From a virus: a stretch of 64,000 nt of DNA. The DNA lies in IMG/VR virus record IMGVR_UViG_3300029023_000077. The stretch is one strand, 5' to 3'. This document shows, one piece after another, positions 3,900 through 42,161 of the stretch. The stretch's first letter is position 1. Each line of letters opens with the position of its first letter. The position numbers and the translations under genes were made by a program. Below the pieces are notes generated by a model. It ran no database searches, was not told where the DNA came from, and was given only the letters and a program-made list of their open reading frames with translations.

Positions 3900-4520
3900 A
3901 TGGGGATATGCCCGTTATGCGGTTCAAAATTGAATAGTAAGAATATGTGTACGAATTTTACAGCATGCTCCTATGTGGGCACTAATAGTTTTGATTTGTA
4001 TTCGTTAAAAGATGGGGTTACAGACGAACTTCGGAATAATCTGGTGATTGTTGACCAGACAGTGGCTACAATGGATTTGCCTGCTACACCAGAATTTTTT
4101 ATTTTAGGCGGAGCAGCATTAGTATTTCATGGATTGACAGATCGCCCTACTATGGATATTGACACAGCCAACAGAATAGACGATAATCTACGTGAGGTTA
4201 TTGATGTATTTGTTAGTGATCAGGCAAGTGAGGTTACTCAGCTTGGAAAAGGGTATCAGTGCAGAGCAGTGCCATATATGGAGGAGTTAAGCAACATTAA
4301 GGTGTATCTGCTATCACAGGAAGACCTGATTATAACGAAGGTAATCAGTAATCGGAAAAAGGATATTGGGGATTTGTTGAAAACCAATATCTTGACAAAA
4401 CATAATGTACAGAAGGCGGTAAGTGTCCTTCAGGCAGAGTATCCTGCAGATGCAGCTAAAAGGTATTCTGCTTATATAAAGCATTTGTTAGCTCGAAAGG
4501 AGAACGCAGATTTTGAATAG
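3900..4520 (+). CDS. Pol-beta superfamily nucleotidyltransferase with N-terminal zinc ribbon
   Basis: CPLCGSK...C..C ribbon; ILGGAALVFHGLTDRPTMDIDT = GG-x14-DID NTase motif (AbiEii/Lnu-like). Confidence 0.5.
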   Translation: MGICPLCGSKLNSKNMCTNFTACSYVGTNSFDLYSLKDGVTDELRNNLVIVDQTVATMDLPATPEFFILGGAALVFHGLTDRPTMDIDTANRIDDNLREVIDVFVSDQASEVTQLGKGYQCRAVPYMEELSNIKVYLLSQEDLIITKVISNRKKDIGDLLKTNILTKHNVQKAVSVLQAEYPADAAKRYSAYIKHLLARKENADFE

Positions 4521-14217: not shown

Positions 14218-16260
14218 ATGATTGAATGTACGAAAGCGATTGATGGGTTAGTAAGTGCAGCTTTTGGGAAGAATATGGTGACTATCTCTGATTTGAAGAA
14301 GATGATGGACAGATTTGCACTTGATCCTAAGGTATCAGAAGTAGCCAGAGAAGCATTCATTGTCAGTGATGTTGACCTGAACAGACGCATGCTCAAGGAG
14401 TTTGAAAAGAAAGCAGCGGCTAAGCATGAAGAGGTTGTCATTATTTTTGTAGCAAAGAAAGGTCCTGCACCATTCAAAGAAATGGCAGGTGTTAATGCTA
14501 TTTTAGAAAAACCGACACCAGAAGATTTGAGTAAAACAACATTCGGTATTATCGAGAGCATTACACAGAAGAATGGCGTTGTACCTATTACTGGTGTAAC
14601 AGATAGCGCAAAAGATTTTGTGAGACAGGAAGAACCAGTTGATCTTGATGTACTTACAGATGAATTTGGTAACCCACTGGAATTTGACCTTAACCGGGTC
14701 GTTGAGGACGAGAAGCCACAGGAAGATACAGCACCGATTGACGTTCCTGTTCCTACTTTGGAGGAGCAGCCAGTTCAGGAAGAGCCGCCAGTCCAGTTTG
14801 ATAAGCCTGAGGATCTTGTTGACCGTATCAAGATGTGCGATAAAGTTAAGGACATTAATATCTTGACACGTGAGCTGACAGCTACAGCTGTCATTAAGGA
14901 GATGATCAAGTCTTCAGCAGACTACACAGGAATTGAAGAACGTTTGAAAGGGCTTAATGAGAAGATTCAAGCAGTATATCTTGATACAACAATTCCTGAG
15001 CAGGATAAGTTGGATAAGGTTCGTGCTCTACTCTATGATAAAGGTTATTACAGAACAAAGACTAACACTATTATTGAGCAGCGTGTAGAAGAGCTTATCA
15101 AGACTATTACTGACCGGACAAGAGAATGCTTGGATAAGCGATGCCAGGAATTAGAGAGGGCAATCGTTAATTATTCATCAGGAGTAAAAGCTCCTTTGGA
15201 TACTGCCAGGGTGTCTAGCCTGATTGATGATCGTGCAAACATTCTTCTGGAAATTACAGCTTTGCGTGAAGAAGTGCAGAATATCTATCTTAAGGTAAAC
15301 AAGTTTGCAGGTGATGCTACTGCTAATATTCTTGAAGACAGTGTGGTTCGCACAGGAAGCCCATTAATTGATGCTCGTTTAAGGTTAGCTGGAGATACTA
15401 CAGTACCTGAGCAGACAACAGAAATCATTGAGAAGATTTTAGAACTGTCAAGTACTAAGTCTGAGGAGTTTAAGGAAGCAAATAGAAAATTAATCATTCT
15501 TACACAGAAGTTGCAGACTGTTATGAATTTAGACAAAGATTTGATTGACGCCCTTACGCAGGCTGTTGAGCTTCTGCAGAGTAACAATATTGAGGATCGT
15601 ATCGTACAGGAGACACTGCTAAAGAAGTCACTTAGGTTCTTTGTGGCAAAAGAAGGCAGTGGAAGGACTGTTATCCCATACATTTGCTCTAAGTTGAAGT
15701 CCAGGACAAACTGTAATGTGCTTTATGTGGATATCGCAGGTGATTCTAAGCTCGCAGATTATACAGAGAGTTACATGAGTCTGGATGATTGGTTAGGTAA
15801 TCAGTATCAGGAGCAGTTCTGTGCAGTAGTTGGTACAATCTCAAATACGCCAGAGGCAGCACAGCGTTTGCTTGTTGCCTTAACAAAGGCAGCTGACTAC
15901 TATCGTGTAATTAATGTTGTAATGAGTCCTGAACAGAAAGAGATTTTTGACATTCTTGTTCCAGATACGGTATGTGTTAATTATATCGTTGACCCTACAT
16001 CACAGTCACTTGATTTCTTTAAGGGCTATATCAAGGAGACTAAATGTGAAAATGTGGCTCAGCGTGTAATTATTAACAAGTGTATCCCTAGTACGACTAG
16101 TATGATTCTTGAGAAGCTGGATCTTATCATGAATGGAGACGTACATGTCGTTACAGTACCGTATGAGCCTCTGATTACGGAATGTAGTCTGCGTGGTGTT
16201 AAGCCATATGAGTTGCAGGTCGTTACAGAAGCATTCAGAGAGGTGTGCAAAGTATGCTAA
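14218..16260 (+). CDS. large hypothetical protein with acidic, proline-rich linker
   Basis: 680-aa ORF; EEQPVQEEPPVQ low-complexity segment; RBS AAGAAAGAGAGG. Confidence 0.55.
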   Translation: MIECTKAIDGLVSAAFGKNMVTISDLKKMMDRFALDPKVSEVAREAFIVSDVDLNRRMLKEFEKKAAAKHEEVVIIFVAKKGPAPFKEMAGVNAILEKPTPEDLSKTTFGIIESITQKNGVVPITGVTDSAKDFVRQEEPVDLDVLTDEFGNPLEFDLNRVVEDEKPQEDTAPIDVPVPTLEEQPVQEEPPVQFDKPEDLVDRIKMCDKVKDINILTRELTATAVIKEMIKSSADYTGIEERLKGLNEKIQAVYLDTTIPEQDKLDKVRALLYDKGYYRTKTNTIIEQRVEELIKTITDRTRECLDKRCQELERAIVNYSSGVKAPLDTARVSSLIDDRANILLEITALREEVQNIYLKVNKFAGDATANILEDSVVRTGSPLIDARLRLAGDTTVPEQTTEIIEKILELSSTKSEEFKEANRKLIILTQKLQTVMNLDKDLIDALTQAVELLQSNNIEDRIVQETLLKKSLRFFVAKEGSGRTVIPYICSKLKSRTNCNVLYVDIAGDSKLADYTESYMSLDDWLGNQYQEQFCAVVGTISNTPEAAQRLLVALTKAADYYRVINVVMSPEQKEIFDILVPDTVCVNYIVDPTSQSLDFFKGYIKETKCENVAQRVIINKCIPSTTSMILEKLDLIMNGDVHVVTVPYEPLITECSLRGVKPYELQVVTEAFREVCKVC

Positions 16261-17648
16261 ATCTTGATGGTTATTTGGATTGTAATAAAGTCCTAGACAT
16301 CAATAGGTATACGAGTCTTAGATTTGCAGATTCACGTGTATTTAAAACGCCAGAGGCATTGTCTTTATATGAGCAGAATTACATGCTTGCATCGGATATT
16401 AAAAAATTGTGTGAGAAAGAATATGGTCTTGAGCTGTTTGAGCCAAGACCATCTTTTATACCAGATGATATCATAAATCATTACAACGGTTCAGGTTATG
16501 TACCTATAAAGTATGAACCTATGAAGAATATCTTGTTGTTGATGTATCTGCCTGAAGTAAAAACATTAGAAAGTCATTACCCTAATGTGCATATTGAGAC
16601 TAAGCCAACAACCATATATTACTATATGAAATATTATCAGAAGTATTATGGTGTTCACAGATCTCTGCGGGATATTCCAGCTAAGATGTTATTTGATTTT
16701 GTTGTAAAAGAAGCTATTGAGAAAGATGCTGCAGATATTACGATTTCAAATACTGGTAAAGCCACAGTTGTATATTACAATATACGCAAGCGGAAGGTAT
16801 GGTCAAACTATTGCTTTAGCCAAGAAATCATGGGTGACATTATAAAGTTTATCACTATAAGCTCACCATTAGACAGAGGGTCTCGTAAAGCTAAGGCTTT
16901 AGATATCGATTTAAATGAAAATTACCGTGGCAGAGTCATGATAAATCAATCATTTAAAGGCATGACTATTACAATTCGTGTTTTACCAAACGCAGCATTC
17001 TCTACTGATATAACAGAGTTAAATTTGACAAAAGAAGCCGAAGAGTGGATGTTGGATAATATTCTTGATATGGAGAAAGGGCTTCGCTTGATTGTAGGTG
17101 AGACAATGTCCGGGAAAAATACAGATGCTTTGTCCCTGTTACAGCGATTAGTAGAGACAGACAGGTATAAGATAGTGTCCGTAGAGATACCAGTGGAGCA
17201 AGAATTGCCTGGTGTTGAACAAATTAATTGTGATACGCCGGACGATTACTCAAACAACATAAAATCTTTAATCAGAGTGAATCCAGACTTTGTTTACATT
17301 ACAGAGATGCAGGATGCTACTGCATTAGACACTATTAAGATAACTAACACAGGTAAATGTGTTTTATCAACAGTACATGCAAACTCTGTCGGGGATACTA
17401 TCGTGAGGCTGATGGATATGACAGGTTTGCCTCAGGATAGAATTGTACAAACTTTGCATTCTGTAGTGTATCAGGAACTCGTAAGAGATGACTCTAAGGA
17501 TTTTGTATATCCAAGATGCCGGTATGTTCGTTTCACGCCTGAGTTGAAGTACCAGCTTTATGGGAAACCACTAGGTGTGATGTTAAAGATTATTCAGGAT
17601 TATGAGGAGGGGGATGTATGGACATCTATTCAGCATTTGGCACAATAG
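16245..17648 (+). CDS. GspE/PilT/VirB11-family traffic ATPase
   Basis: Walker A GETMSGKNT; Asp/His boxes RVNPDFVYITEMQDATA ... TGKCVLSTVHANSVGDTIVRLMDM as in PilT/VirB11. Confidence 0.65.
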   Translation: MQSMLNLDGYLDCNKVLDINRYTSLRFADSRVFKTPEALSLYEQNYMLASDIKKLCEKEYGLELFEPRPSFIPDDIINHYNGSGYVPIKYEPMKNILLLMYLPEVKTLESHYPNVHIETKPTTIYYYMKYYQKYYGVHRSLRDIPAKMLFDFVVKEAIEKDAADITISNTGKATVVYYNIRKRKVWSNYCFSQEIMGDIIKFITISSPLDRGSRKAKALDIDLNENYRGRVMINQSFKGMTITIRVLPNAAFSTDITELNLTKEAEEWMLDNILDMEKGLRLIVGETMSGKNTDALSLLQRLVETDRYKIVSVEIPVEQELPGVEQINCDTPDDYSNNIKSLIRVNPDFVYITEMQDATALDTIKITNTGKCVLSTVHANSVGDTIVRLMDMTGLPQDRIVQTLHSVVYQELVRDDSKDFVYPRCRYVRFTPELKYQLYGKPLGVMLKIIQDYEEGDVWTSIQHLAQ

Positions 17649-18510: not shown

Positions 18511-19665
18511 ATGAGAAATGAGATTCGTGGTATTGCGGTCGATAATGGTGGTAGTGAAGTAAGAGTGATGGATGGTATGAATCCTGTATTAGAAGACATG
18601 ATCAAGCTGAAGAATGATTTTGTCTCTATCAAGGAGAAGGATTTCAGGGTAAAAGAGGTTGCTGAACCTGCAAAGCTTTGTAGGGTATTGGAAGCGCCTA
18701 ATCCTGATTTCATGGGAATCTTTGCACAAGGTTTGACAGGTAAAGCATATGAAGGTCAGGTTGTGGCTATTTCCAGCCAGAAAGAAAAGACTGCTGACCC
18801 AAATTATTATAAGCAGTTTATATTTGCAGTGGCACAAGATGCATTGAAAGCTTGGATTCAGTCAGGTGGTTACTCTATGTACTCTAACGGTAACTCTGAA
18901 TCACAGCAGCACCCGGACATTGCTGATTCGTACGATTACTGTATTGTGGCTTGCATCCCTATTCAGGAGTTCAGCGGTGCAAAAGATTGTGCAGGATTGT
19001 TAAAAAATACGTTGCAGGGTCATTATGTTGTAGAGTTTCCATTGTTAGATAAGAAACCTGTGATCTCTTTCAACATTAAAGCTGAGTTTATGGGTGCAGC
19101 ACCTGAAGGTGGTATTGCTGTTAAGGCTCTGAAAGATCAGTTAGAAGAAGATGATATTTCCTTATTGGTTGATATGGGTTGTGTTACAACAGATATTGCA
19201 TTATTTCAAGGTACACATCTCTTAGGTAGGGTGTCATCTGTTAAATTTGCAAGTAGTACATTAGTTGCAAATATTCGTGCTGTATTGGCAGATGAAGGCT
19301 ATTTCGTGTCAGAAGCACAGGCTGAAAATGTACTGATTGCAAAACGTGTTAAGGATGGTCATGAGTCCGTAGATGTTTCTGCCATTGTAGAGGAGCAGAG
19401 CCGTAATTTTGTTCGTAACTACTTACAGAATGAGATAATTGGTATCCTTAATGCAAATCATGTTAATGCAAGACAGGTTCAGAACTTTGTGCCAATAGGT
19501 GCTTCTTTTAATAACCCGGAAAGTAATGCACTTATTTCAGAGATTGTTGCTTGTGCTAATTTACAGAAAGCAAAGCTCTGCATTCTTGCTGACGATTTAC
19601 GTTATGTGAATATCCAGCAGGCTAGTCGTTTTGTCAAGAAGTTTGTTAAGAAAGCAAAGGCGTGA
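18511..19665 (+). CDS. actin-like ATPase (ParM/Alp family)
   Basis: Phosphate-1 GIAVDNGGSEVRV and phosphate-2 LLVDMGCVTTDIALF motifs of actin-fold segregation ATPases. Confidence 0.55.
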   Translation: MRNEIRGIAVDNGGSEVRVMDGMNPVLEDMIKLKNDFVSIKEKDFRVKEVAEPAKLCRVLEAPNPDFMGIFAQGLTGKAYEGQVVAISSQKEKTADPNYYKQFIFAVAQDALKAWIQSGGYSMYSNGNSESQQHPDIADSYDYCIVACIPIQEFSGAKDCAGLLKNTLQGHYVVEFPLLDKKPVISFNIKAEFMGAAPEGGIAVKALKDQLEEDDISLLVDMGCVTTDIALFQGTHLLGRVSSVKFASSTLVANIRAVLADEGYFVSEAQAENVLIAKRVKDGHESVDVSAIVEEQSRNFVRNYLQNEIIGILNANHVNARQVQNFVPIGASFNNPESNALISEIVACANLQKAKLCILADDLRYVNIQQASRFVKKFVKKAKA

Positions 19666-25984: not shown

Positions 25985-27157
25985 ATGGTGGGTAAGATTG
26001 ATTCTTTTGATAAGGTAATTGGGCACAAGTCTTTAATTACGTACATACAGCATTGGATCGACACAGACACGACGCCTAATGTTCTGTTGTTTCATGGTAA
26101 TCCAGGTCTTGGTAAATCGTCTATTGCAAAATTGTTGGCGATTGCTCTTACAACAGATGAAAGTACGCGGAAGGATGCTGTAGAGAATGTAATTTACAAT
26201 AATAGGTCTACTGGAAGTATAAAACTATTCAGCATGTCAAAGATTCAGGACAAAGAAGAGGAGATTAAGAAAGTTTCTGGGGAACTACAGATGAACTTTG
26301 TTAATACAAAGCATAAGGTTCTAATTCTGGATGAAGCACATGAGATGTCAAAGGCAGCACAGGATTCTATTCTTGTTGAATTGGAACATCTACCTGAAGG
26401 ACTGCACGTTTTTATTTGTACAACAGAGATTAATGCATTTCGACCGGCTCTAGTTTCTCGTTGTAAGGTGCTTGAATTACATCCGTTATCTGAAAACGAA
26501 GCAAGACAGTTGTTTAACCGTGAAGTAAAAGAAAGGGATCTTACATTTGAGCTTCAGCAGGGGCTGGCTTCAACGCTTATCTGTGGATGGGCGGAAAACC
26601 AGCCACGTAAGATAATTAATCTGTTGGACAATTTTGAGAATCATGCATTAGTAAAGACAAGGGAGTTGGAAGTATTCATTAACACTGTCAACTCATCTTC
26701 AGTTATAGAGCTTGTTAAGTATCTCTATGGATCAATGCCATTAGGTATTGAATACATTCAATCCATCAAGCTGGATAATACTTTTGTGATGATGCTTATT
26801 GAGGTAACAAAGGTTGCAATGGGTGTGCCATCAAACAGACTTAGCCTACCTGATGTACAGTATATACAGGCTTTTATGCAGGATAAAGATATTAATAAAC
26901 TCTTGCAGTTTGTCATTGAGGTATCTGGGCTTAGTACATTATATAAGCGTCGTGTTATCTCTGCCTTTATGAGAGCACATGTAGATTTCAAGAGAGCAGT
27001 CCCAATAAATGAAGTCCATACAAGTGCAGGTGCGGATATACAGGCAGTAGCAGACAATATTGAAGATAAAAGTGCTATGATACAGCGACAGGAAGGTGTA
27101 CAAGGCGTTACACCTGTTGACATGCTATTTGATCAGCTTAGCACAGTGGAGGTGTAA
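25985..27157 (+). CDS. AAA+ clamp-loader subunit (RFC / Pol III gamma-tau / gp44-like)
   Basis: Walker A GNPGLGKSS, Walker B LILDEAHEM, sensor-1 ICTTE, SRC motif ALVSRCKVLEL. Confidence 0.7.
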   Translation: MVGKIDSFDKVIGHKSLITYIQHWIDTDTTPNVLLFHGNPGLGKSSIAKLLAIALTTDESTRKDAVENVIYNNRSTGSIKLFSMSKIQDKEEEIKKVSGELQMNFVNTKHKVLILDEAHEMSKAAQDSILVELEHLPEGLHVFICTTEINAFRPALVSRCKVLELHPLSENEARQLFNREVKERDLTFELQQGLASTLICGWAENQPRKIINLLDNFENHALVKTRELEVFINTVNSSSVIELVKYLYGSMPLGIEYIQSIKLDNTFVMMLIEVTKVAMGVPSNRLSLPDVQYIQAFMQDKDINKLLQFVIEVSGLSTLYKRRVISAFMRAHVDFKRAVPINEVHTSAGADIQAVADNIEDKSAMIQRQEGVQGVTPVDMLFDQLSTVEV

Positions 27158-27161
27158 ATAG

Positions 27162-27524
27162 ATGATATATACAAGCTATTACAAAAATGTTGCAGATGTC
27201 GGTCCTGCCTATACGTTGATACAAGTATCTAACTCAAAACCTAAATGGTTTCCTTGGGGTGTATGGCCTTTGCCAGAAGTGTATCCTGATTTTGAGAATG
27301 TTAAGGCTTTGAAAGATGGGGTAATGTCAGAAGATCGCTTTTCTCAGTTATATAGAGAGAAACTAGCTAAGTTAGATAGAACTGTCATTCTTAACAAGAT
27401 TAATGAGATTGTATCTTTGGGCGATGATAAGGATGCTATGCTGTTATGCTGGGAAAGCTCTGATAAGTTCTGTCATAGACATATATTAGCAGAGTGGTTA
27501 GGTAATAATATTCAGGAATGGTGA
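27162..27524 (+). CDS. hypothetical protein
   Basis: 120-aa ORF. Confidence 0.45.
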   Translation: MIYTSYYKNVADVGPAYTLIQVSNSKPKWFPWGVWPLPEVYPDFENVKALKDGVMSEDRFSQLYREKLAKLDRTVILNKINEIVSLGDDKDAMLLCWESSDKFCHRHILAEWLGNNIQEW

Positions 27525-27739
27525 GGGATTATATGAGTGAAATCACAGATGCATGGGAGAAAGTTAAAAATAAGTATATTGCAAGATACTATGAGCATTA
27601 CACAAAATACTTAGAAAATCCAAATGATTTGGTGAATAAAGGTGCAATGCTTGAGAATTGTTATGTACTTATTCATGTCTTCGGCTGCTCCGAGAGGTAC
27701 ATACTGGAAATCGAAAGGTGTGGATTTCCAAAGGAGTAG
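27518..27739 (+). CDS. hypothetical small protein
   Basis: 73-aa ORF. Confidence 0.4.
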   Translation: MVRDYMSEITDAWEKVKNKYIARYYEHYTKYLENPNDLVNKGAMLENCYVLIHVFGCSERYILEIERCGFPKE

Positions 27740-27787
27740 TTGAAATAGGATAATGACTATTATATAATAAAAGAGAAGGAACTTAAT

Positions 27788-28640
27788 ATGGCAGTAGATA
27801 TTAATGCAATGAGAAAATCTCAGTCCACAGTAGCTATAGATCTGGTTAATGATAAGTTTACGGAGAAGATGTCGAATATACAGCTATTAGACTATATTGC
27901 ATTGGTTCTTGCACGTAATATGGCATCCAATATTGCTTTTAAGGGTGGTTGGGTATTACGTCAGATTATGGAAGGTCATGCTAGGGCAACAAAGGATGTT
28001 GACCTTTCTGCGGAAACTGAAAAAAAGCTATGATGAAGTGAAAGCTGTTTTAAAGGAAATTGGGCAGTTATTACAAGCCAGAGGAATGATTAATGAATTT
28101 GTGATAAAAGAGGAGATAAAGCCAACACAATCCGGAGGTATCACAATGTATAAGGATGGCTCTATTGTTGCTGGTGTGGATGTTGGTCTGCATAACATAC
28201 ATTATGGCGTTCAGCACTATGAGCTTAATTATGGGTTTGACGCTTTTACGATAGAACGTATGTTGTCTGATAAGATATTGGCTATATTAACACGGAAGCA
28301 TTTTCGAAGAACAAAGGATTTGTATGATGTCTATGCCATTTCTCATGTTTTTGACTTCAGTTCGCAAAAGATAGTGGAATTTATGAGAGAACGAGGTGTG
28401 ACTCCTGAATGGGATAATATACCGTTTAGCGCTGTAGTTTTAGAACAATACGAGATTGCTTGGAATAAATTAAGGGTGCAGGCTATATCGACTGATGTTG
28501 AGGTGGAAAAGCCTTCATTCACGGCTGCTATAAGCACGTTTAATGAAATTGCTTATAAAGTAAAAGAAATATGGTTAGGACAGGACAGCTCTGTGTATGA
28601 GTGGAACCATAATAATTGTGGGTGGTCTGTTTCAGAATAG
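27788..28640 (+). pseudogene. AbiEii/DUF1814-like nucleotidyltransferase split at an A7 homopolymer
   Basis: Part 1 27788-28033 carries NIAFKGGWVLRQIMEGHARATKDVDLS (KGG...R.T.D.D NTase motif). Part 2 is the ORF from 27897 to 28640 in the adjacent frame. Deleting one A at 28020-28026 fuses them into one ~284-aa protein. Confidence 0.5.
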
Positions 28641-28648
28641 GAGAAAGT

Positions 28649-29071
28649 ATGAAGTATGATGGATTAGTTGTTGAATCTAGTATTATGTGTGGACAGTGCG
28701 CATTGGCTAGAAATGGCTTGACGACACATAACAGTGAGTCGCTGTGTTTTTGGACTTCCGTAAAAGAATTGGACGGCAAGGATTTTCGTTGTGTCACCTA
28801 CTATTACAAGAAGGATTTCGATACAGAACATTATCTAGCACCGGCTAAAACTAATCCACTCATTTTGATTCCAACGCCAGAACGTGCAATAGTTGAATAC
28901 ATTCAGAATGAAAAGTGGTGTGATGAGGGTACGCTAATTGAAGCATTGAAAAGCTACTTATTCAGGTATGGTAATACTGAGAAGTTGTTTGAGGTTGCAA
29001 GATTCTTTGGGCTATCTGAGGAGCATCTAAGCTATTGGATAACTGAAGCAGAGGAAGATGAGGAAATATAA
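28649..29071 (+). CDS. hypothetical acidic protein
   Basis: ATG 28649 with RBS GGAGAAAG; ORF open from 28616. Confidence 0.45.
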   Translation: MKYDGLVVESSIMCGQCALARNGLTTHNSESLCFWTSVKELDGKDFRCVTYYYKKDFDTEHYLAPAKTNPLILIPTPERAIVEYIQNEKWCDEGTLIEALKSYLFRYGNTEKLFEVARFFGLSEEHLSYWITEAEEDEEI

Positions 29072-29084
29072 ATAAACTGTAGGA

Positions 29085-29121
29085 AGACTGGGTATATTAC
29101 ACCCAGTCTTTTATTATGCTT
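29085..29121 (+). terminator. rho-independent terminator
   Basis: AAGACTGGGT-atattac-ACCCAGTCTT 10-bp stem then TTATTATGCTT. Confidence 0.6.
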
Positions 29122-29192
29122 AAAAATAATGATATGAACTGACATATCTAATTGGGAAGTAATTACAATTCAAGTGAAGAAGGTGAAATTTT

Positions 29193-29477
29193 ATGAAATT
29201 AGATTTAGCTAAATTATTTTCCGGTAACGAAGGTGAGCAGATTGTGGAGTTGACATATTGTCAGGTAAATCAGTTACCTGCTATTAGTGGATATTCCTAT
29301 TGGCTGGCTGTTAAAGGTTGCAATGCTATACAGTATTTTGGTGACGAAAGCGTTGAGGTTGTGGGAGAAACTGAAGAGTGTTTTGAACTGCGTAGTACAA
29401 CACGCAGCATTATTTCTCGTGACGATCGTGGATTCAAGTTAACAAAGGCTGAATTTGAAAATTTAGTAAAGGAGTAG
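29193..29477 (+). CDS. hypothetical protein
   Basis: 94-aa ORF with RBS GAAGGTG. Confidence 0.5.
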   Translation: MKLDLAKLFSGNEGEQIVELTYCQVNQLPAISGYSYWLAVKGCNAIQYFGDESVEVVGETEECFELRSTTRSIISRDDRGFKLTKAEFENLVKE

Positions 29478-29479
29478 TT

Positions 29480-29989
29480 ATGATATTAGGCATTACAGGA
29501 CCTAGACCATCCAAATTAAACTGGGGTTATGATATGAATAGCCCTAATTGGATGGCTTTACGTAGATATTTTATGCATTACTTCATTGAACATAATGTTA
29601 CTGAGGTTATTACAGGCATGGCCTTGGGTGTTGATACTGCAGCAGCATTAGCAGTTCTTGATTTAAAGGACCAAGGTTATGATATTATGTTACATTGTGC
29701 TATTCCGTGTCAGAATCAAGAGTCCAGATGGCTGCCGGAAAGTCAAAGGTTGTATAAGTCAATTCTGGATAGAGCTGATTTAGTCATCATTGTAACTGAT
29801 GCGCCATACTCACCTTGGTTAATGCAGACACGTAATCAGTACATTGTTAATATATCAGATCAAATGCTGGCTATTTGGGATGGTTCGCGTGGTGGTACAG
29901 CTAACTGCATTGATTATGCTCAAAAGATGCGGAAGCCGATTACTGTTGTACAACCTCTATTTGTTTTGGAGACTAATTATGGTTTATGA
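29480..29989 (+). CDS. SLOG-superfamily Rossmann protein (DprA/YpsA/LOG-like)
   Basis: ITGMALGVDTAAA and DGSRGGTANCIDYA resemble the GxD...PGGxGT signatures of DprA/YpsA/LOG proteins. Confidence 0.4.
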   Translation: MILGITGPRPSKLNWGYDMNSPNWMALRRYFMHYFIEHNVTEVITGMALGVDTAAALAVLDLKDQGYDIMLHCAIPCQNQESRWLPESQRLYKSILDRADLVIIVTDAPYSPWLMQTRNQYIVNISDQMLAIWDGSRGGTANCIDYAQKMRKPITVVQPLFVLETNYGL

Positions 29990-30155
29990 AGTGAAGGAAA
30001 GTAAGGAGTCATTGAATGGCATAGGAATGCGAGTTGGTATTTGTTCACATTGTGGGCAGCCAGTAACTTATTGGTTAAACAGATACACATGTCATTTCTG
30101 CCATGCTGAGGTTTTATGGAAGAATGGTGGACAGGATGATGAGAAGAAACAGTAG
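29979..30155 (+). CDS. small zinc-ribbon protein
   Basis: CSHCG ... CHFCH four-Cys/His ribbon; reading frame open from 29844. Confidence 0.35.
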   Translation: MVYEVKESKESLNGIGMRVGICSHCGQPVTYWLNRYTCHFCHAEVLWKNGGQDDEKKQ

Positions 30156-30753
30156 ATCTAGAGTATGTGAAATTAAAGAGGTAACGCAACATAAACTTGC
30201 AGCTTGTCCTAGCTGTAGTAAGATTATTGACCAGCTATCTAGTACAAAAGAATGTACTTATTGCGGTGTCAAGCTCCGTTGGCCCAAGGATAGCACAAAG
30301 GTTATCAGGTGTATTGATCCGTACAGGGGATTATACACGGGAGACATAGTAGTTCATTTTAAACGAGAACTTATGTCAGAAGAAGATCTGAAAGAGGAAC
30401 CTAATTTGTATATGTATGAAATTCTAGGGGAAGTAATGTCAGCAGACAATCTTGAAGAAATGGTCATTTACAGGGCACTTTATGAAGGTAACGCCATTTA
30501 TGCTCGTAAGAAATGTGAGTTCCTTGATAGTGTTGATAAAATTAAATACCCTGAAATCAAACAAATACATAGATTTGAGAAGATGGTACGTTGTATGGCT
30601 TCTGTAAATCAGGTGAGGGTTCATCATGCAGAGCTGTCTACTGCTGACCTTAGCGAGCTTGCCCAGATGCAGAGAGCTTGCAATAAGGCAGGAGATGGCA
30701 AAAGAGGAGAAGGAGGTATTTTATGCCAGATTATAGGAAAGTCCAAGAACTAG
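30103..30753 (+). CDS. zinc-ribbon protein
   Basis: CPSC ... CTYCG ribbon; start uncertain (ATG at 30103, 30124 or 30136). Confidence 0.5.
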   Translation: MLRFYGRMVDRMMRRNSRSRVCEIKEVTQHKLAACPSCSKIIDQLSSTKECTYCGVKLRWPKDSTKVIRCIDPYRGLYTGDIVVHFKRELMSEEDLKEEPNLYMYEILGEVMSADNLEEMVIYRALYEGNAIYARKKCEFLDSVDKIKYPEIKQIHRFEKMVRCMASVNQVRVHHAELSTADLSELAQMQRACNKAGDGKRGEGGILCQIIGKSKN

Positions 30754-31103
30754 AGTCAGCAAGGATACTAACAGAACAGTATTATGCAGATTGTGTTAAA
30801 TATATTGATGTGAAGCCAGGCAGTCCTGGAGTATCAACTTCTCTATACTATGCAAAAGATCATGAAGATGTTGTGCATAATTATATATTTACTACTTATT
30901 TTACAGAAACAACATACTTAACAATTATCATTGATACGACATGGTTAGTTGAAGTAGGCAGAGTATATACAGAAATAGATGGAGTAATGGCTACTACGTG
31001 CTTTGACGGGTCAGTTGGATATTTCAGTGGGTTGAGTGACATTGCTAGAGACATACGTAAACGTCTGTCAAAGGGAGTAAATAGTTATGTTGAAACAGTG
31101 TAA
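30723..31103 (+). CDS. hypothetical protein
   Basis: 126-aa ORF. Confidence 0.45.
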   Translation: MPDYRKVQELESARILTEQYYADCVKYIDVKPGSPGVSTSLYYAKDHEDVVHNYIFTTYFTETTYLTIIIDTTWLVEVGRVYTEIDGVMATTCFDGSVGYFSGLSDIARDIRKRLSKGVNSYVETV

Positions 31104-31275
31104 AGATACGAAGAGTAAGCATAGGAAACGGCTTCATGCTAAGGCTTTGTGTGACTCTAAGAAACAGACTCCTGAGCAGGTTCTTTATGGGTTAATTGTA
31201 AATGTGGACGGTTAGCCAGTCCGTTCAATGCAGAATGTTATTGGTGTTTTCAGAAATTAAAGAGAGGTATATAAA

Positions 31276-31500
31276 ATGAGTAAAGTTAGTGTATTCGTAG
31301 AAGAGCATTTAGTACGTGAATTGACGTTTGATGTACAAGATGAAGATGCAGACGCTAGAATGGTCAAAGCAGAAAAGTTAGCAAGAGAGCAAATTAAAGC
31401 TAGGGAGGTTGTTTTGAACGCTAATGATTTTAGCGGCACACGGTTGCTTATGGTGCGGGACCATCAGTCAGATTTTGAGACGAATTGGTTTAATTTTTAA
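31276..31500 (+). CDS. hypothetical small protein
   Basis: 74-aa ORF. Confidence 0.45.
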   Translation: MSKVSVFVEEHLVRELTFDVQDEDADARMVKAEKLAREQIKAREVVLNANDFSGTRLLMVRDHQSDFETNWFNF

Positions 31501-37809: not shown

Positions 37810-38616
37810 ATGAATTACTGGACAGATAAGGAAAGAAGAAGAATAGCTGCGGTTGAATGGAATGAATATATCCATAATAATTATAAGGCTGAAATCAATG
37901 AGTGCATTAAGAAGACTGAGTTATGGGATGAGTTTTGTCCTTTAGAATATTCTGATGTTGTAGGTAGTGAGGTTGAATCTATGAAGGTTCTACAATTAAC
38001 CACAACACAGGCAATCAAACACTGCAGCCAAGAAGGTGAGAGAATAGCAGTATTGAATTTTGCTAGTTTCAAAAATCCTGGTGGTATGTTTTTAAATGGT
38101 TCTGGTGCGCAGGAGGAATCCCTATGCCATGAATCTCTACTGTACCCTGTATTAAAAGCATTCAATGCAAGTTATTATGCGGTTAACCATAATAACCTGA
38201 ATAGGGCTCTGTATAAAGATAAGTTGCTGTATTCTGTGGATATTCCATTCTTTGATATGAAGGCAAAGAAACCAGCAGACAAGGCGGATGTTATCACATG
38301 TGCAGCTCCTAATTGGGGTGCCTACGCAAAGTATCATGAGCCTATTTCTGATAGAGACATTGCTTTAAATCGTGAGATGCTTCGTTCACGGTTTGAGAAG
38401 CTCTACTTTGTTGCAGCAAAACATAATGTTGATACATTGATTCTTGGTGCATGGGGATGTGGTGTTTTCAAACAGAATATACATACTGTTATTGATGTAA
38501 TGCTTGAAGTAATAATGTCATATCAGGCAAATATTAAACATATTGTATTTGCTGTGCCTGATGCGGATAGTTTTAGAATATTTGATAGCAGGGTGAGAAA
38601 AGCAGTAGAAGCATAA
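37810..38616 (+). CDS. microbial-type poly(ADP-ribose) glycohydrolase (DUF2263/TIGR02452 macro domain)
   Basis: VLNFASFKNPGGMFLNGSGAQEESLCHESLLY = PARG GGG-x6-8-QEE signature; LILGAWGCGVFKQN second conserved block. Confidence 0.8.
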   Translation: MNYWTDKERRRIAAVEWNEYIHNNYKAEINECIKKTELWDEFCPLEYSDVVGSEVESMKVLQLTTTQAIKHCSQEGERIAVLNFASFKNPGGMFLNGSGAQEESLCHESLLYPVLKAFNASYYAVNHNNLNRALYKDKLLYSVDIPFFDMKAKKPADKADVITCAAPNWGAYAKYHEPISDRDIALNREMLRSRFEKLYFVAAKHNVDTLILGAWGCGVFKQNIHTVIDVMLEVIMSYQANIKHIVFAVPDADSFRIFDSRVRKAVEA

Positions 38617-41679: not shown

Positions 41680-42073
41680 AGGCCTGTAATGGTTTCGACA
41701 GGGTTATGAGGTTAAGTATTGCATCGGTCAGTCACCTATAACCAAAAAACAAAAAAATAGACGCTACAAGACGCCCTATGGCTATTGCTGCTTAATCTCG
41801 TGAGAGGTTGGTTGTTATAGTTCCGTTGCTACCGGGTAATGGGACGATGGTGATAGCTACCTCAACGTTTGCTACTATAAAGTAAATAGCTATGATGCTA
41901 GACTCCCAATCTTAGTATTGATATACAGCCTCGCAAGGAGGCTAGGTGCACAAACAATGGCCATGTAAGGTTTGTTAATTTTACCTGTATATGACTGTAA
42001 CGAAAATTAACTAAGATGTAGATATACTTATTAGTACTTTCTTTGGACACGGGTTCGATTCCCGTCAGGTCCA
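41680..42073 (+). ncRNA. ssrA: tmRNA (SsrA-like transfer-messenger RNA), tag ATRRPMAIAA
   Basis: 5' AGGCCUGUAAUGGUUUCGACAGGG parallels GGGGCUGAUUCUGGAUUCGACGGG. AAAAAAAUAGAC-GCU... parallels E. coli AAAAAAUAGUC-GCA at the resume codon. The tag frame GCU ACA AGA CGC CCU AUG GCU AUU GCU GCU UAA lies at 41763-41795. 3' end is T-arm ACGGG-UUCGAUU-CCCGU plus acceptor CAGGUCC-A pairing with 5' GGCCUG (G3:U). Length ~394 nt. Confidence 0.8.
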
Positions 42074-42161
42074 CTTAGATACTAGGAGAGGCTAAGACTC
42101 TAGTAGTGATGAGACCATCACACTAGTAGCTTTAAGTAAACAAAGCGAAGGAGATTTATTT

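Follow-up and report, generated by a model that had tools for sequence, protein, structure and literature searches.

We examined a 64,000-nucleotide (nt) stretch of DNA (IMG/VR virus record IMGVR_UViG_3300029023_000077), referred to here as the window, in which a gene for an AbiEii-type nucleotidyltransferase (NTase) toxin is split at a run of seven adenines (A7). We consider it probable that this is a genuine, slippage-made null allele of a normally functional toxin gene, that the gene belongs to a toxin-antitoxin (TA) cassette of reversed gene order in which the toxin has been lost repeatedly, and that the accompanying antitoxin-like gene has stayed intact. Comparison of the window with related loci showed that the toxin gene has long been functional, purifying selection between clades being strong, and that within one shallow clade it has been inactivated repeatedly, by tract expansion as well as by other lesions, while the partner gene was kept. 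The A-tract itself was found to be a slippage (mutational) hotspot.

The N-terminal fragment of the gene (27788 to 28033, plus strand) starts at ATG 27788 and runs for 81 codons, which include motifs I and II of the family, before ending at a premature TGA at 28031 to 28033. The frameshift site is the A7 homopolymer at 28020 to 28026 (plus strand), which is bordered by G on each side; in relatives the tract is A6 and in frame, and A8 and in-frame A9 forms are also present in the population. The C-terminal part (28026 to 28640, plus strand) lies in the +1 frame and comprises 204 codons, from S80 to the TAG at 28638 to 28640, with motifs III and IV. An initial annotation had described 81 N-terminal codons with an NTase motif and a C-terminal part in the adjacent frame, open back through the run; the coordinates and motifs I and II agree with the former, and for the latter we found the +1 frame to be open from as far back as 27891. 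In silico removal of one A joins the two frames, as had been proposed, to give a protein reading ...SAETEKSYDEVKAVLKE..., with the junction at residue 79/80, although its exact length is 283 amino acids (aa) and not the approximately 284 first given.

The two open reading frames (ORFs) represent one gene, and their join is not a matter of chance, because a single PF08843 (AbiEii) match spans the junction (59 bits against a cutoff of 22.5; residues 45 to 208 of the merged protein) and because an uninterrupted 283-aa public homologue (P0001), 98% identical to the merged protein, is known. PF08843 was present in all listed homologues bar two (P0035 and P0058). The merged protein was also matched by 23 PADLOC AbiEii models, and its best solved relative in a sequence search of the PDB was AbiGII (9hlo_B; E value of 1e-6, residues 33 to 187, again across the junction). 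The family assignment of the divided gene is borne out by these matches. The peptide MAVDINAMR, on the other hand, had been put forward as a family N-terminal motif; it is conserved in near relatives only, and the PF08843 match does not begin until residue 45.

With the motifs defined as by Dy et al. (2014), we located motif I of the merged protein at residues 51 to 54 (FKGG) and motif II at R66/T68/D70/D72. The spacer between them is exactly 15 residues, in keeping with the hG[G/S]-x15-DhD pattern (F-K-G53-G54, D70-V-D72). The family-specific arginine, R66, stands four residues before D70, as does R63 before D67 in Streptococcus agalactiae AbiEii, and T68 occupies the place of the S. agalactiae AbiEii phosphoacceptor T65 (bioRxiv 2026 preprint). 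Motif III (KILAILTR; a K...R helix) covers residues 162 to 169, and motif IV (KDLYD; pattern +DxxD) covers residues 176 to 180. In the relatives with A6, all four motifs are on one polypeptide. In the window, motifs I and II are encoded entirely within the 81-aa fragment, and motifs III and IV, which lie past the premature stop and in the +1 frame only, are not on the same polypeptide as I and II.

The exact 81-aa product (P0094) was recovered from 31 contigs and an R66S variant of it (P0096) from 43, the sources being ENA, JGI, NCBI, and Logan. In total, at least 74 contigs carry the A7 allele; they derive from independent metagenomes of the human gut, from many cohorts, and from assemblies of several kinds (MEGAHIT k119/k141, SPAdes NODE_ contigs, METAG scaffolds, Logan, and JGI). 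Some 50 related loci, 45 of them nonredundant, were retrieved from a range of cohorts and assemblers. All split genes among the fetched loci had A7 and all 283-aa genes had A6; A7 was confirmed in the DNA for 18 of 18 nonredundant A7 loci, and A6 was present in 26 of the 45, including all three of the diverged clades described below. A census of approximately 93 contigs, sampled through four antitoxin alleles and blind to the state of the toxin, yielded about 55 intact genes, 36 with A7, 1 with a nonsense mutation, and 1 in which the DxD motif was dead; sequences reported as similar places not shown were assumed in this census to equal the representative that was shown. A few irregularities elsewhere in the public contigs were also noted. 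The clamp-loader gene at L029:2199-3370 has a 1-bp deletion away from any homopolymer (GCTTGTTAAG to GCTT-TTTAG), and the DUF488 gene at L027:3375-3737 (the same contig as L036:2514-2876) carries W32*; these disruptions are rare, unique, and unlike the AbiEii lesions, and give an impression of the background level of lesion or error. The first 14 nt of L061 (positions 1 to 14, CGCTCTTCCGATCT) are an Illumina adapter remnant, an assembly artifact at a public contig end.

Tract expansion is not the only lesion of the gene. E109* is present in one locus (L010), and its product (P0149) was found on 3 contigs. In another allele (L011, equivalent to P0080; 6 contigs), the changes K69S/D70F/D72A convert KDVDL to SFVAL, so that both catalytic aspartates are gone. 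R66S, which alters the motif II arginine, is carried by all copies of the H3 haplotype (see below), and an A7 allele on the H2 haplotype has a further 5-bp deletion at 28191 to 28195 in two samples. Genuine inactivation had been one of the three explanations first offered for the split gene, and it is upheld both by A6 as the in-frame state of relatives and by these independent nonsense, catalytic-motif, and second-frameshift lesions in the same gene. The changes in L011 stem from seven substitutions within 15 nt (L011:3345-3359, corresponding to window positions 27992 to 28006; AAGGATGTTGACCTT to TCCTTTGTTGCCCTA), and AAGGA, the first five bases affected, has turned into its exact reverse complement, TCCTT; template switching and a patch from a divergent copy are both possibilities for the origin of the cluster. 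We had also considered the 68-aa members of the N-terminal fragment's protein cluster as a further truncation, but these proved to be the upstream gene instead.

In three diverged sister clades (L013 to L019, L040 to L044, and L045 to L051), all copies are A6 and the gene is intact. Between clades, the ratio of nonsynonymous to synonymous divergence (dN/dS) of the toxin gene is about 0.05 (0.03 to 0.08 for most pairs) at a dS of 0.1 to 0.35, and that of the partner gene is about 0.02. Because the diverged clades are A6 and dN/dS is this low, we conclude that the A6 protein is normally made without any frameshift and that it is strongly constrained.

Within the shallow clade, A7 is found on three haplotypes of the gene: H1, the haplotype of the window, with D102N; H2, with G92V and P206T; and H3, with R66S, Q142H, and R200K, with or without H143R. 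The private single-nucleotide polymorphisms (SNPs) of these haplotypes lie 35 to 66 nt from the run, with others further up- and downstream. The A8 tract was seen in two samples (L059 and L060) on the otherwise unmutated H0 background, and A9, which is in frame and adds one Lys, was seen once (L058), also on H0. One locus (L001) has A6 on the derived H3b haplotype, of which the other seven sampled copies are A7, and L020 is a recombinant with an H3 5′ part. In all, there have been at least about 6 changes in tract length in a clade whose point substitutions number only about 14 over 852 nt. As at a contingency locus, then, an intragenic tract differs in length between close relatives, and its length determines the reading frame, with A6, A7, A8, and A9 on near-identical backgrounds. 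Recombination was also evident in the flanks: from about 600 bp downstream of the cassette (window positions ~29650 to 31300), L002 to L011 switch sharply between two diverged types of block, G1 and G2, and a further, separately diverged block upstream is common to L011 and L023. Because of these block switches, the elements must be regarded as recombination mosaics. In one part of the blind sample, the G2-type contigs were all toxin inactivated and the G1-type contigs were all toxin intact. A first, flank-based tree made A7 appear nearly monophyletic; site-by-site inspection revealed that this was driven by the recombinant downstream block, and a gene-level tree was used instead.

The second gene of the cassette, a putative antitoxin gene of 140 aa (28649 to 29071, plus strand), has its own Shine-Dalgarno (SD) sequence (GGAGAAAG) and starts 9 nt past the toxin stop codon. 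PADLOC AbiEi models match the partner at model positions 69 to 186 of 198 only, i.e., over the C-terminal two-thirds. The AlphaFold2 model of the partner has a predicted local distance difference test score of 94.9, and its top Foldseek match in the PDB is S. agalactiae AbiEi (6y8q, chains A and D; E value of 3.3e-4, probability of 1.00, template modeling score of 0.64), with an alignment covering 130 columns of 195 residues at 16% identity; Mycobacterium tuberculosis Rv2827c is third among the fold matches. A weak profile match to the same region of 6y8q (AbiEi) and to 9hlo_A (AbiGI) was also obtained. Judging from the model, the partner has the C-terminal, toxin-neutralizing domain of AbiEi. 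It lacks the winged helix-turn-helix (wHTH) domain at the N terminus, as do 23 of 23 partner homologues, which are 135 to 165 aa long. In the model system, the C-terminal domain of AbiEi alone suffices for neutralization (Dy et al. 2014). Wherever its full 423 nt could be read, in 44 loci, the partner gene was intact.

In reference AbiE operons the antitoxin gene precedes that of the toxin (Dy et al. 2014), whereas here the toxin gene (27788 to 28640) is followed by the partner (28649 to 29071). Because a toxin gene and, after it, a gene of about 141 aa are also found at homologues of 44 to 47% identity on other large contigs, the cassette is a conserved reverse-order variant of the AbiE design, with an antitoxin reduced to the C-terminal domain. 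A predicted sigma-70-like promoter (TTGAAA-17-TATAAT, 27740 to 27768, plus strand; 11 of 12 consensus positions) lies directly upstream, and an intrinsic-terminator-like hairpin with a T-run (29082 to 29112, plus strand; 12-bp stem, found by consensus scan) closes the cassette, which, with both of these signals predicted, is a self-contained unit of promoter, toxin, antitoxin, and terminator.

The alternatives to a genuine null allele differ in what they make of the seventh A. The true sequence might be A6 and the extra A a homopolymer miscall, as the initial annotation had allowed. Homopolymers are the classic site for indel errors; however, at least 74 contigs, drawn from many cohorts and produced by differing assemblers, have the identical allele, which led us to reject this explanation, and A7 is linked with specific SNP haplotypes. 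Moreover, A7 at 28020 to 28026 is the only one of the five homopolymers of at least 7 nt in the window that breaks an ORF, the other four disrupting none, and no other homopolymer of at least 5 nt in the surrounding 8.9 kb varies in length across some 45 loci. We regard a miscall as extremely improbable. Alternatively, the A7 allele might still yield the full-length toxin, either by a +1/−2 tRNA-Lys frameshift on A AAA A or by polymerase slippage (one A deleted or two added). A-runs are slippage sites for polymerases and ribosomes alike, which lends this idea some support, as do the perfect re-pairing of tRNA-Lys in the +1 frame on the run, giving exactly the A6 protein, and the fact that the C-terminal frame is open for 204 codons in all 18 nonredundant A7 loci read over the full gene. 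The configuration is not conserved, however: most relatives (about 60% of the close ones) and all three diverged clades have a single-frame A6 gene, and more distant homologues have no A-run and have unrelated codons at the site. The orthologue comparison that had been recommended at the outset thus returned A6, a result that counts against recoding and does not count in favor of a simple assembly error. Nor were stimulators found; nothing resembling an SD sequence stands in GACCTTTCTGCGGAAACTG, the 20 nt upstream of the run, and there is no stable structure downstream, where 84 nt fold at −9.7 kcal/mol (z = 0.28 against shuffles), and the next zero-frame codon, AAG, is not slow. The A8 alleles and the A7 allele with the added 5-bp deletion would demand different shifts, and the latter deletion would be purged if the downstream frame were needed. 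The co-occurrence of nonsense and catalytically dead alleles likewise points to loss of function. Taken together, the lack of conservation, the missing stimulators, and the doubly frameshifted allele led us to abandon programmed +1 frameshifting or transcriptional slippage, the remaining early suggestion, as very unlikely. We also weighed a −1 shift at the A_AAA_AAG heptamer, which is in phase, and discarded it, as the −1 frame closes after six codons (KKAMMK*) and the homologous part is in the +1 frame.

A further alternative accepts the A7 allele as real and gives it a purpose. In this scheme the A-tract would be a selected, reversible contingency locus at which the toxin is phase varied between ON (A6 and A9) and OFF (A7 and A8) as a form of bet-hedging. 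The existence of four natural tract lengths, including an in-frame A9 that restores the ORF, the presence of A7 on three haplotypes, the A6 of L001 on H3b, which would fit reversion from A7, and the number of tract changes (at least 6, against about 14 point substitutions in 852 nt) all fit such a switch, and in M. tuberculosis homopolymer tracts of about 7 nt are reported to be phase variable (PMC10334774). However, A6 and A7 are short for high-frequency switching, a third of random walks would be expected to yield an in-frame A9, and the three diverged clades are uniformly A6. Lesions that cannot revert (E109*, loss of DxD, R66S, and the 5-bp deletion) point instead to one-way loss, and the A8, A9, and L001 alleles are each found on one or two short contigs. 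We therefore think that selected phase variation is unlikely. More doubtful still, and frankly speculative, is a version in which the contingency locus toggles an AbiE-like, tRNA-targeting toxin and the wHTH-less partner serves in OFF variants as an orphan antitoxin, i.e., as a counterdefense against AbiE-type systems of hosts or competitors. If this were true, phase variation would decide whether the cassette acts as a weapon, for addiction or exclusion, or purely as an antidefense gene.

Several observations weigh against our own reading, that of a slippage-made null allele of a functional toxin gene. The toxicity of the intact protein and the antitoxicity of the partner are both deduced from homology. 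Within the clade, AbiEii shows 12 nonsynonymous or nonsense changes against 2 synonymous ones, and the small neighboring genes show 13:0; an argument for relaxed constraint from a McDonald-Kreitman-style contrast (12:2) was accordingly dropped, the neighbors making it clear that the excess is not specific to AbiEii. The contigs that carry the A8, A9, and L001 alleles, one or two for each, are only 1 to 4 kb long, and in a mosaic population some of the recurrence of A7 could be due to short-patch gene conversion and not to new mutation. Finally, an in-frame A9 and an A6 on an otherwise A7 haplotype are also what one would expect of a reversible switch.

The null allele would have arisen by insertion of one A into the A6 tract (GAA AAA AGC to GAA AAA AAG C..), most likely by replication slippage, after which translation would end two codons later. 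In S. agalactiae AbiEii, mutation of either motif III or motif IV abolishes toxicity (Dy et al. 2014). Because these essential motifs are missing from it, the 81-aa product should be nontoxic. Any full-length product made from A7 would presumably come from unprogrammed, low-level slippage of the polymerase or ribosome only. A GGAGG-7 nt-ATG arrangement in the C-terminal frame (28134 to 28148, plus strand; ATG of M120), recognized by reading the sequence, is a predicted internal start from which a 164-aa C-terminal fragment without the catalytic motifs could be separately translated; gene callers chose the 164-aa ORF from M120 on several A7 contigs. Loss of the toxin would be tolerated or even favored, since the antitoxin-like gene is retained and no addiction penalty should be incurred. 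The nature of the other lesions supports the idea that in vivo the intact protein acts as a toxin, because the point and motif changes strike residues that are essential in the model toxin; for example, R63A in S. agalactiae AbiEii, equivalent to a change at R66 here, is nontoxic (Dy et al. 2014).

The element that carries the cassette is found on human-gut metagenome contigs of up to 608 kb. The window has a GC content of 37%, is coding almost wholly on one strand, and includes genes for a clamp loader, a UvrD-like helicase, a 5′-3′ exonuclease, a ParB-like protein, an ATPase of the type II/type IV secretion system (T2SS/T4SS) type, and a transfer-messenger RNA (tmRNA); Pfam and PHROG scans of about 40 ORFs in the window mostly gave no match. 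Searches of GenBank phages by megablast (27000 to 29600) and by tblastn (merged protein) gave no match, there were no relatives in IMG/VR or among GTDB species representatives, and a pattern scan of JGI metagenomes returned a single A6 locus (L012). The T2SS/T4SS-family ATPase (16245 to 17648, plus strand; PF00437, E value of 6e-36) found remote matches only, of less than 35% identity, by tblastn against phages and plasmids, including PLSDB, which was queried with the ATPase and not with the AbiEii locus. Together with the ParB-like partition protein (18511 to 19665, plus strand; phrog_691), this ATPase, whose nearest relatives are less than 35% identical, would favor a plasmid-like or conjugative nature for the element. 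The full-length tmRNA gene (41680 to 42076, plus strand; ARAGORN-predicted tag ATRRPMAIAA*; RF00023, 87.3 bits against a gathering threshold of 47) is an uncommon thing for a plasmid or phage to carry and offers a clue to the nature of the element. We also considered the oral giant elements known as Inocles, but their GC content is reported as 32% or 24%, against 37% here, and nothing links the two.

Other genes of possible TA or defense function were noted in the window. A second NTase gene (3900 to 4520, plus strand; DUF6036, PF19502, E value of 7e-21), with a weak, subthreshold AbiEii match, could represent a further toxin-like NTase of this element. The gene at 37810 to 38616 (plus strand) encodes a microbial-type PARG catalytic domain (PF10021, E value of 2e-27), i.e., an ADP-ribose-removing, macrodomain-type enzyme; phages are known to carry orphan DarG-like antitoxins (PMC11825919), and by analogy this enzyme could have a DarG-like or anti-DarT function. 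There is also a weak HipA_C-like kinase domain (58840 to 60123, plus strand; PF07804, 23.5 bits, below cutoff), and a similarly faint HipA_C match lies beside an AbiEii homologue on a different large element (L054:797-1918), which also carries MNT/HEPN-type pairs and a Metallophos gene. These findings suggest that TA- or defense-type genes are clustered on such elements.

Recognition of the split gene as a real null allele, rather than as an error or a case of recoding, avoids a false annotation as a programmed frameshift. What is new is an AbiE/MenAT-type module of reversed order, with a minimal antitoxin consisting of the C-terminal domain only, which is conserved in several lineages of very large, essentially unannotated gut elements. 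The population also provides a natural mutagenesis series of the toxin (A7, A8, A9 with its extra Lys, E109*, R66S, D70F/D72A, and the 5-bp deletion). With about 40% of the sampled contigs silenced for the toxin and the antitoxin kept, the locus bears on the decay or repurposing of TA modules on mobile elements. Frameshifted TA toxins and homopolymer indels are ordinary in themselves, and current understanding is not overturned.

The A7 allele creates A_AAA_AAG in zero-frame phase (codons GAA AAA AAG) and so resembles the dnaX-type A AAA AAG −1 site; it differs in that the −1 frame shuts after 6 codons, the homologous part is in the +1 frame, and stimulators were not found. Among defense systems, a close parallel is AbiE of Lactococcus lactis and S. 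agalactiae, a type IV system recently proposed as type VII. The toxin shares with AbiEii the DUF1814/PF08843 pol-beta NTase class, motifs I to IV, the motif II Arg, and a Thr at the phosphoacceptor position; the partner shares the AbiEi C-terminal fold, and both systems are compact bicistronic units. Unlike AbiE, the cassette described here has its toxin gene first and an antitoxin of 140 aa that is without the N-terminal wHTH/COG5340 DNA-binding domain, so that autoregulation of the AbiEi type is not possible. Its carrier, moreover, is a giant uncultivated gut element rather than a bacterial chromosome or small plasmid; its toxin is polymorphic for null alleles, and sequence identity to the solved members is low (16% to 6y8q for the partner). 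AbiG (9hlo) is another counterpart; AbiGII is remotely similar to the toxin, and the architecture differs, AbiGI having 196 aa and the partner 140 aa. The MenAT toxins of M. tuberculosis (MenT1, MenT3, and MenT4), which are DUF1814 NTases acting on the tRNA acceptor stem, belong to the same superfamily. MenAT operons, too, have the antitoxin gene first. By analogy with these systems, the toxin is likely to add nucleotides to the tRNA 3′ end and to be neutralized by antitoxin-induced phosphorylation or by binding, although no MenT structure was matched directly by the toxin sequence, and MenT1 came up only in the fold search with the partner model, as a weak match.

With the phase-variable or frameshifting homopolymers of M. 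tuberculosis (PMC10334774) and Bordetella pertussis (PMC1891110), the A-tract shares homoplasious changes in length among close relatives that switch the reading frame. With a base state of A6, it ranks among the shorter of such tracts, and it lies in a TA toxin gene on a mobile element. The OFF alleles also recall the orphan antitoxins of phages, such as the antitoxin-like enzymes active against DarTG1 (PMC11825919) and the antitoxin mimic of a vibriophage (PMC11481870), in that an intact, conserved antitoxin-like gene is present without a working toxin; here, however, that gene still adjoins its own recently inactivated toxin.

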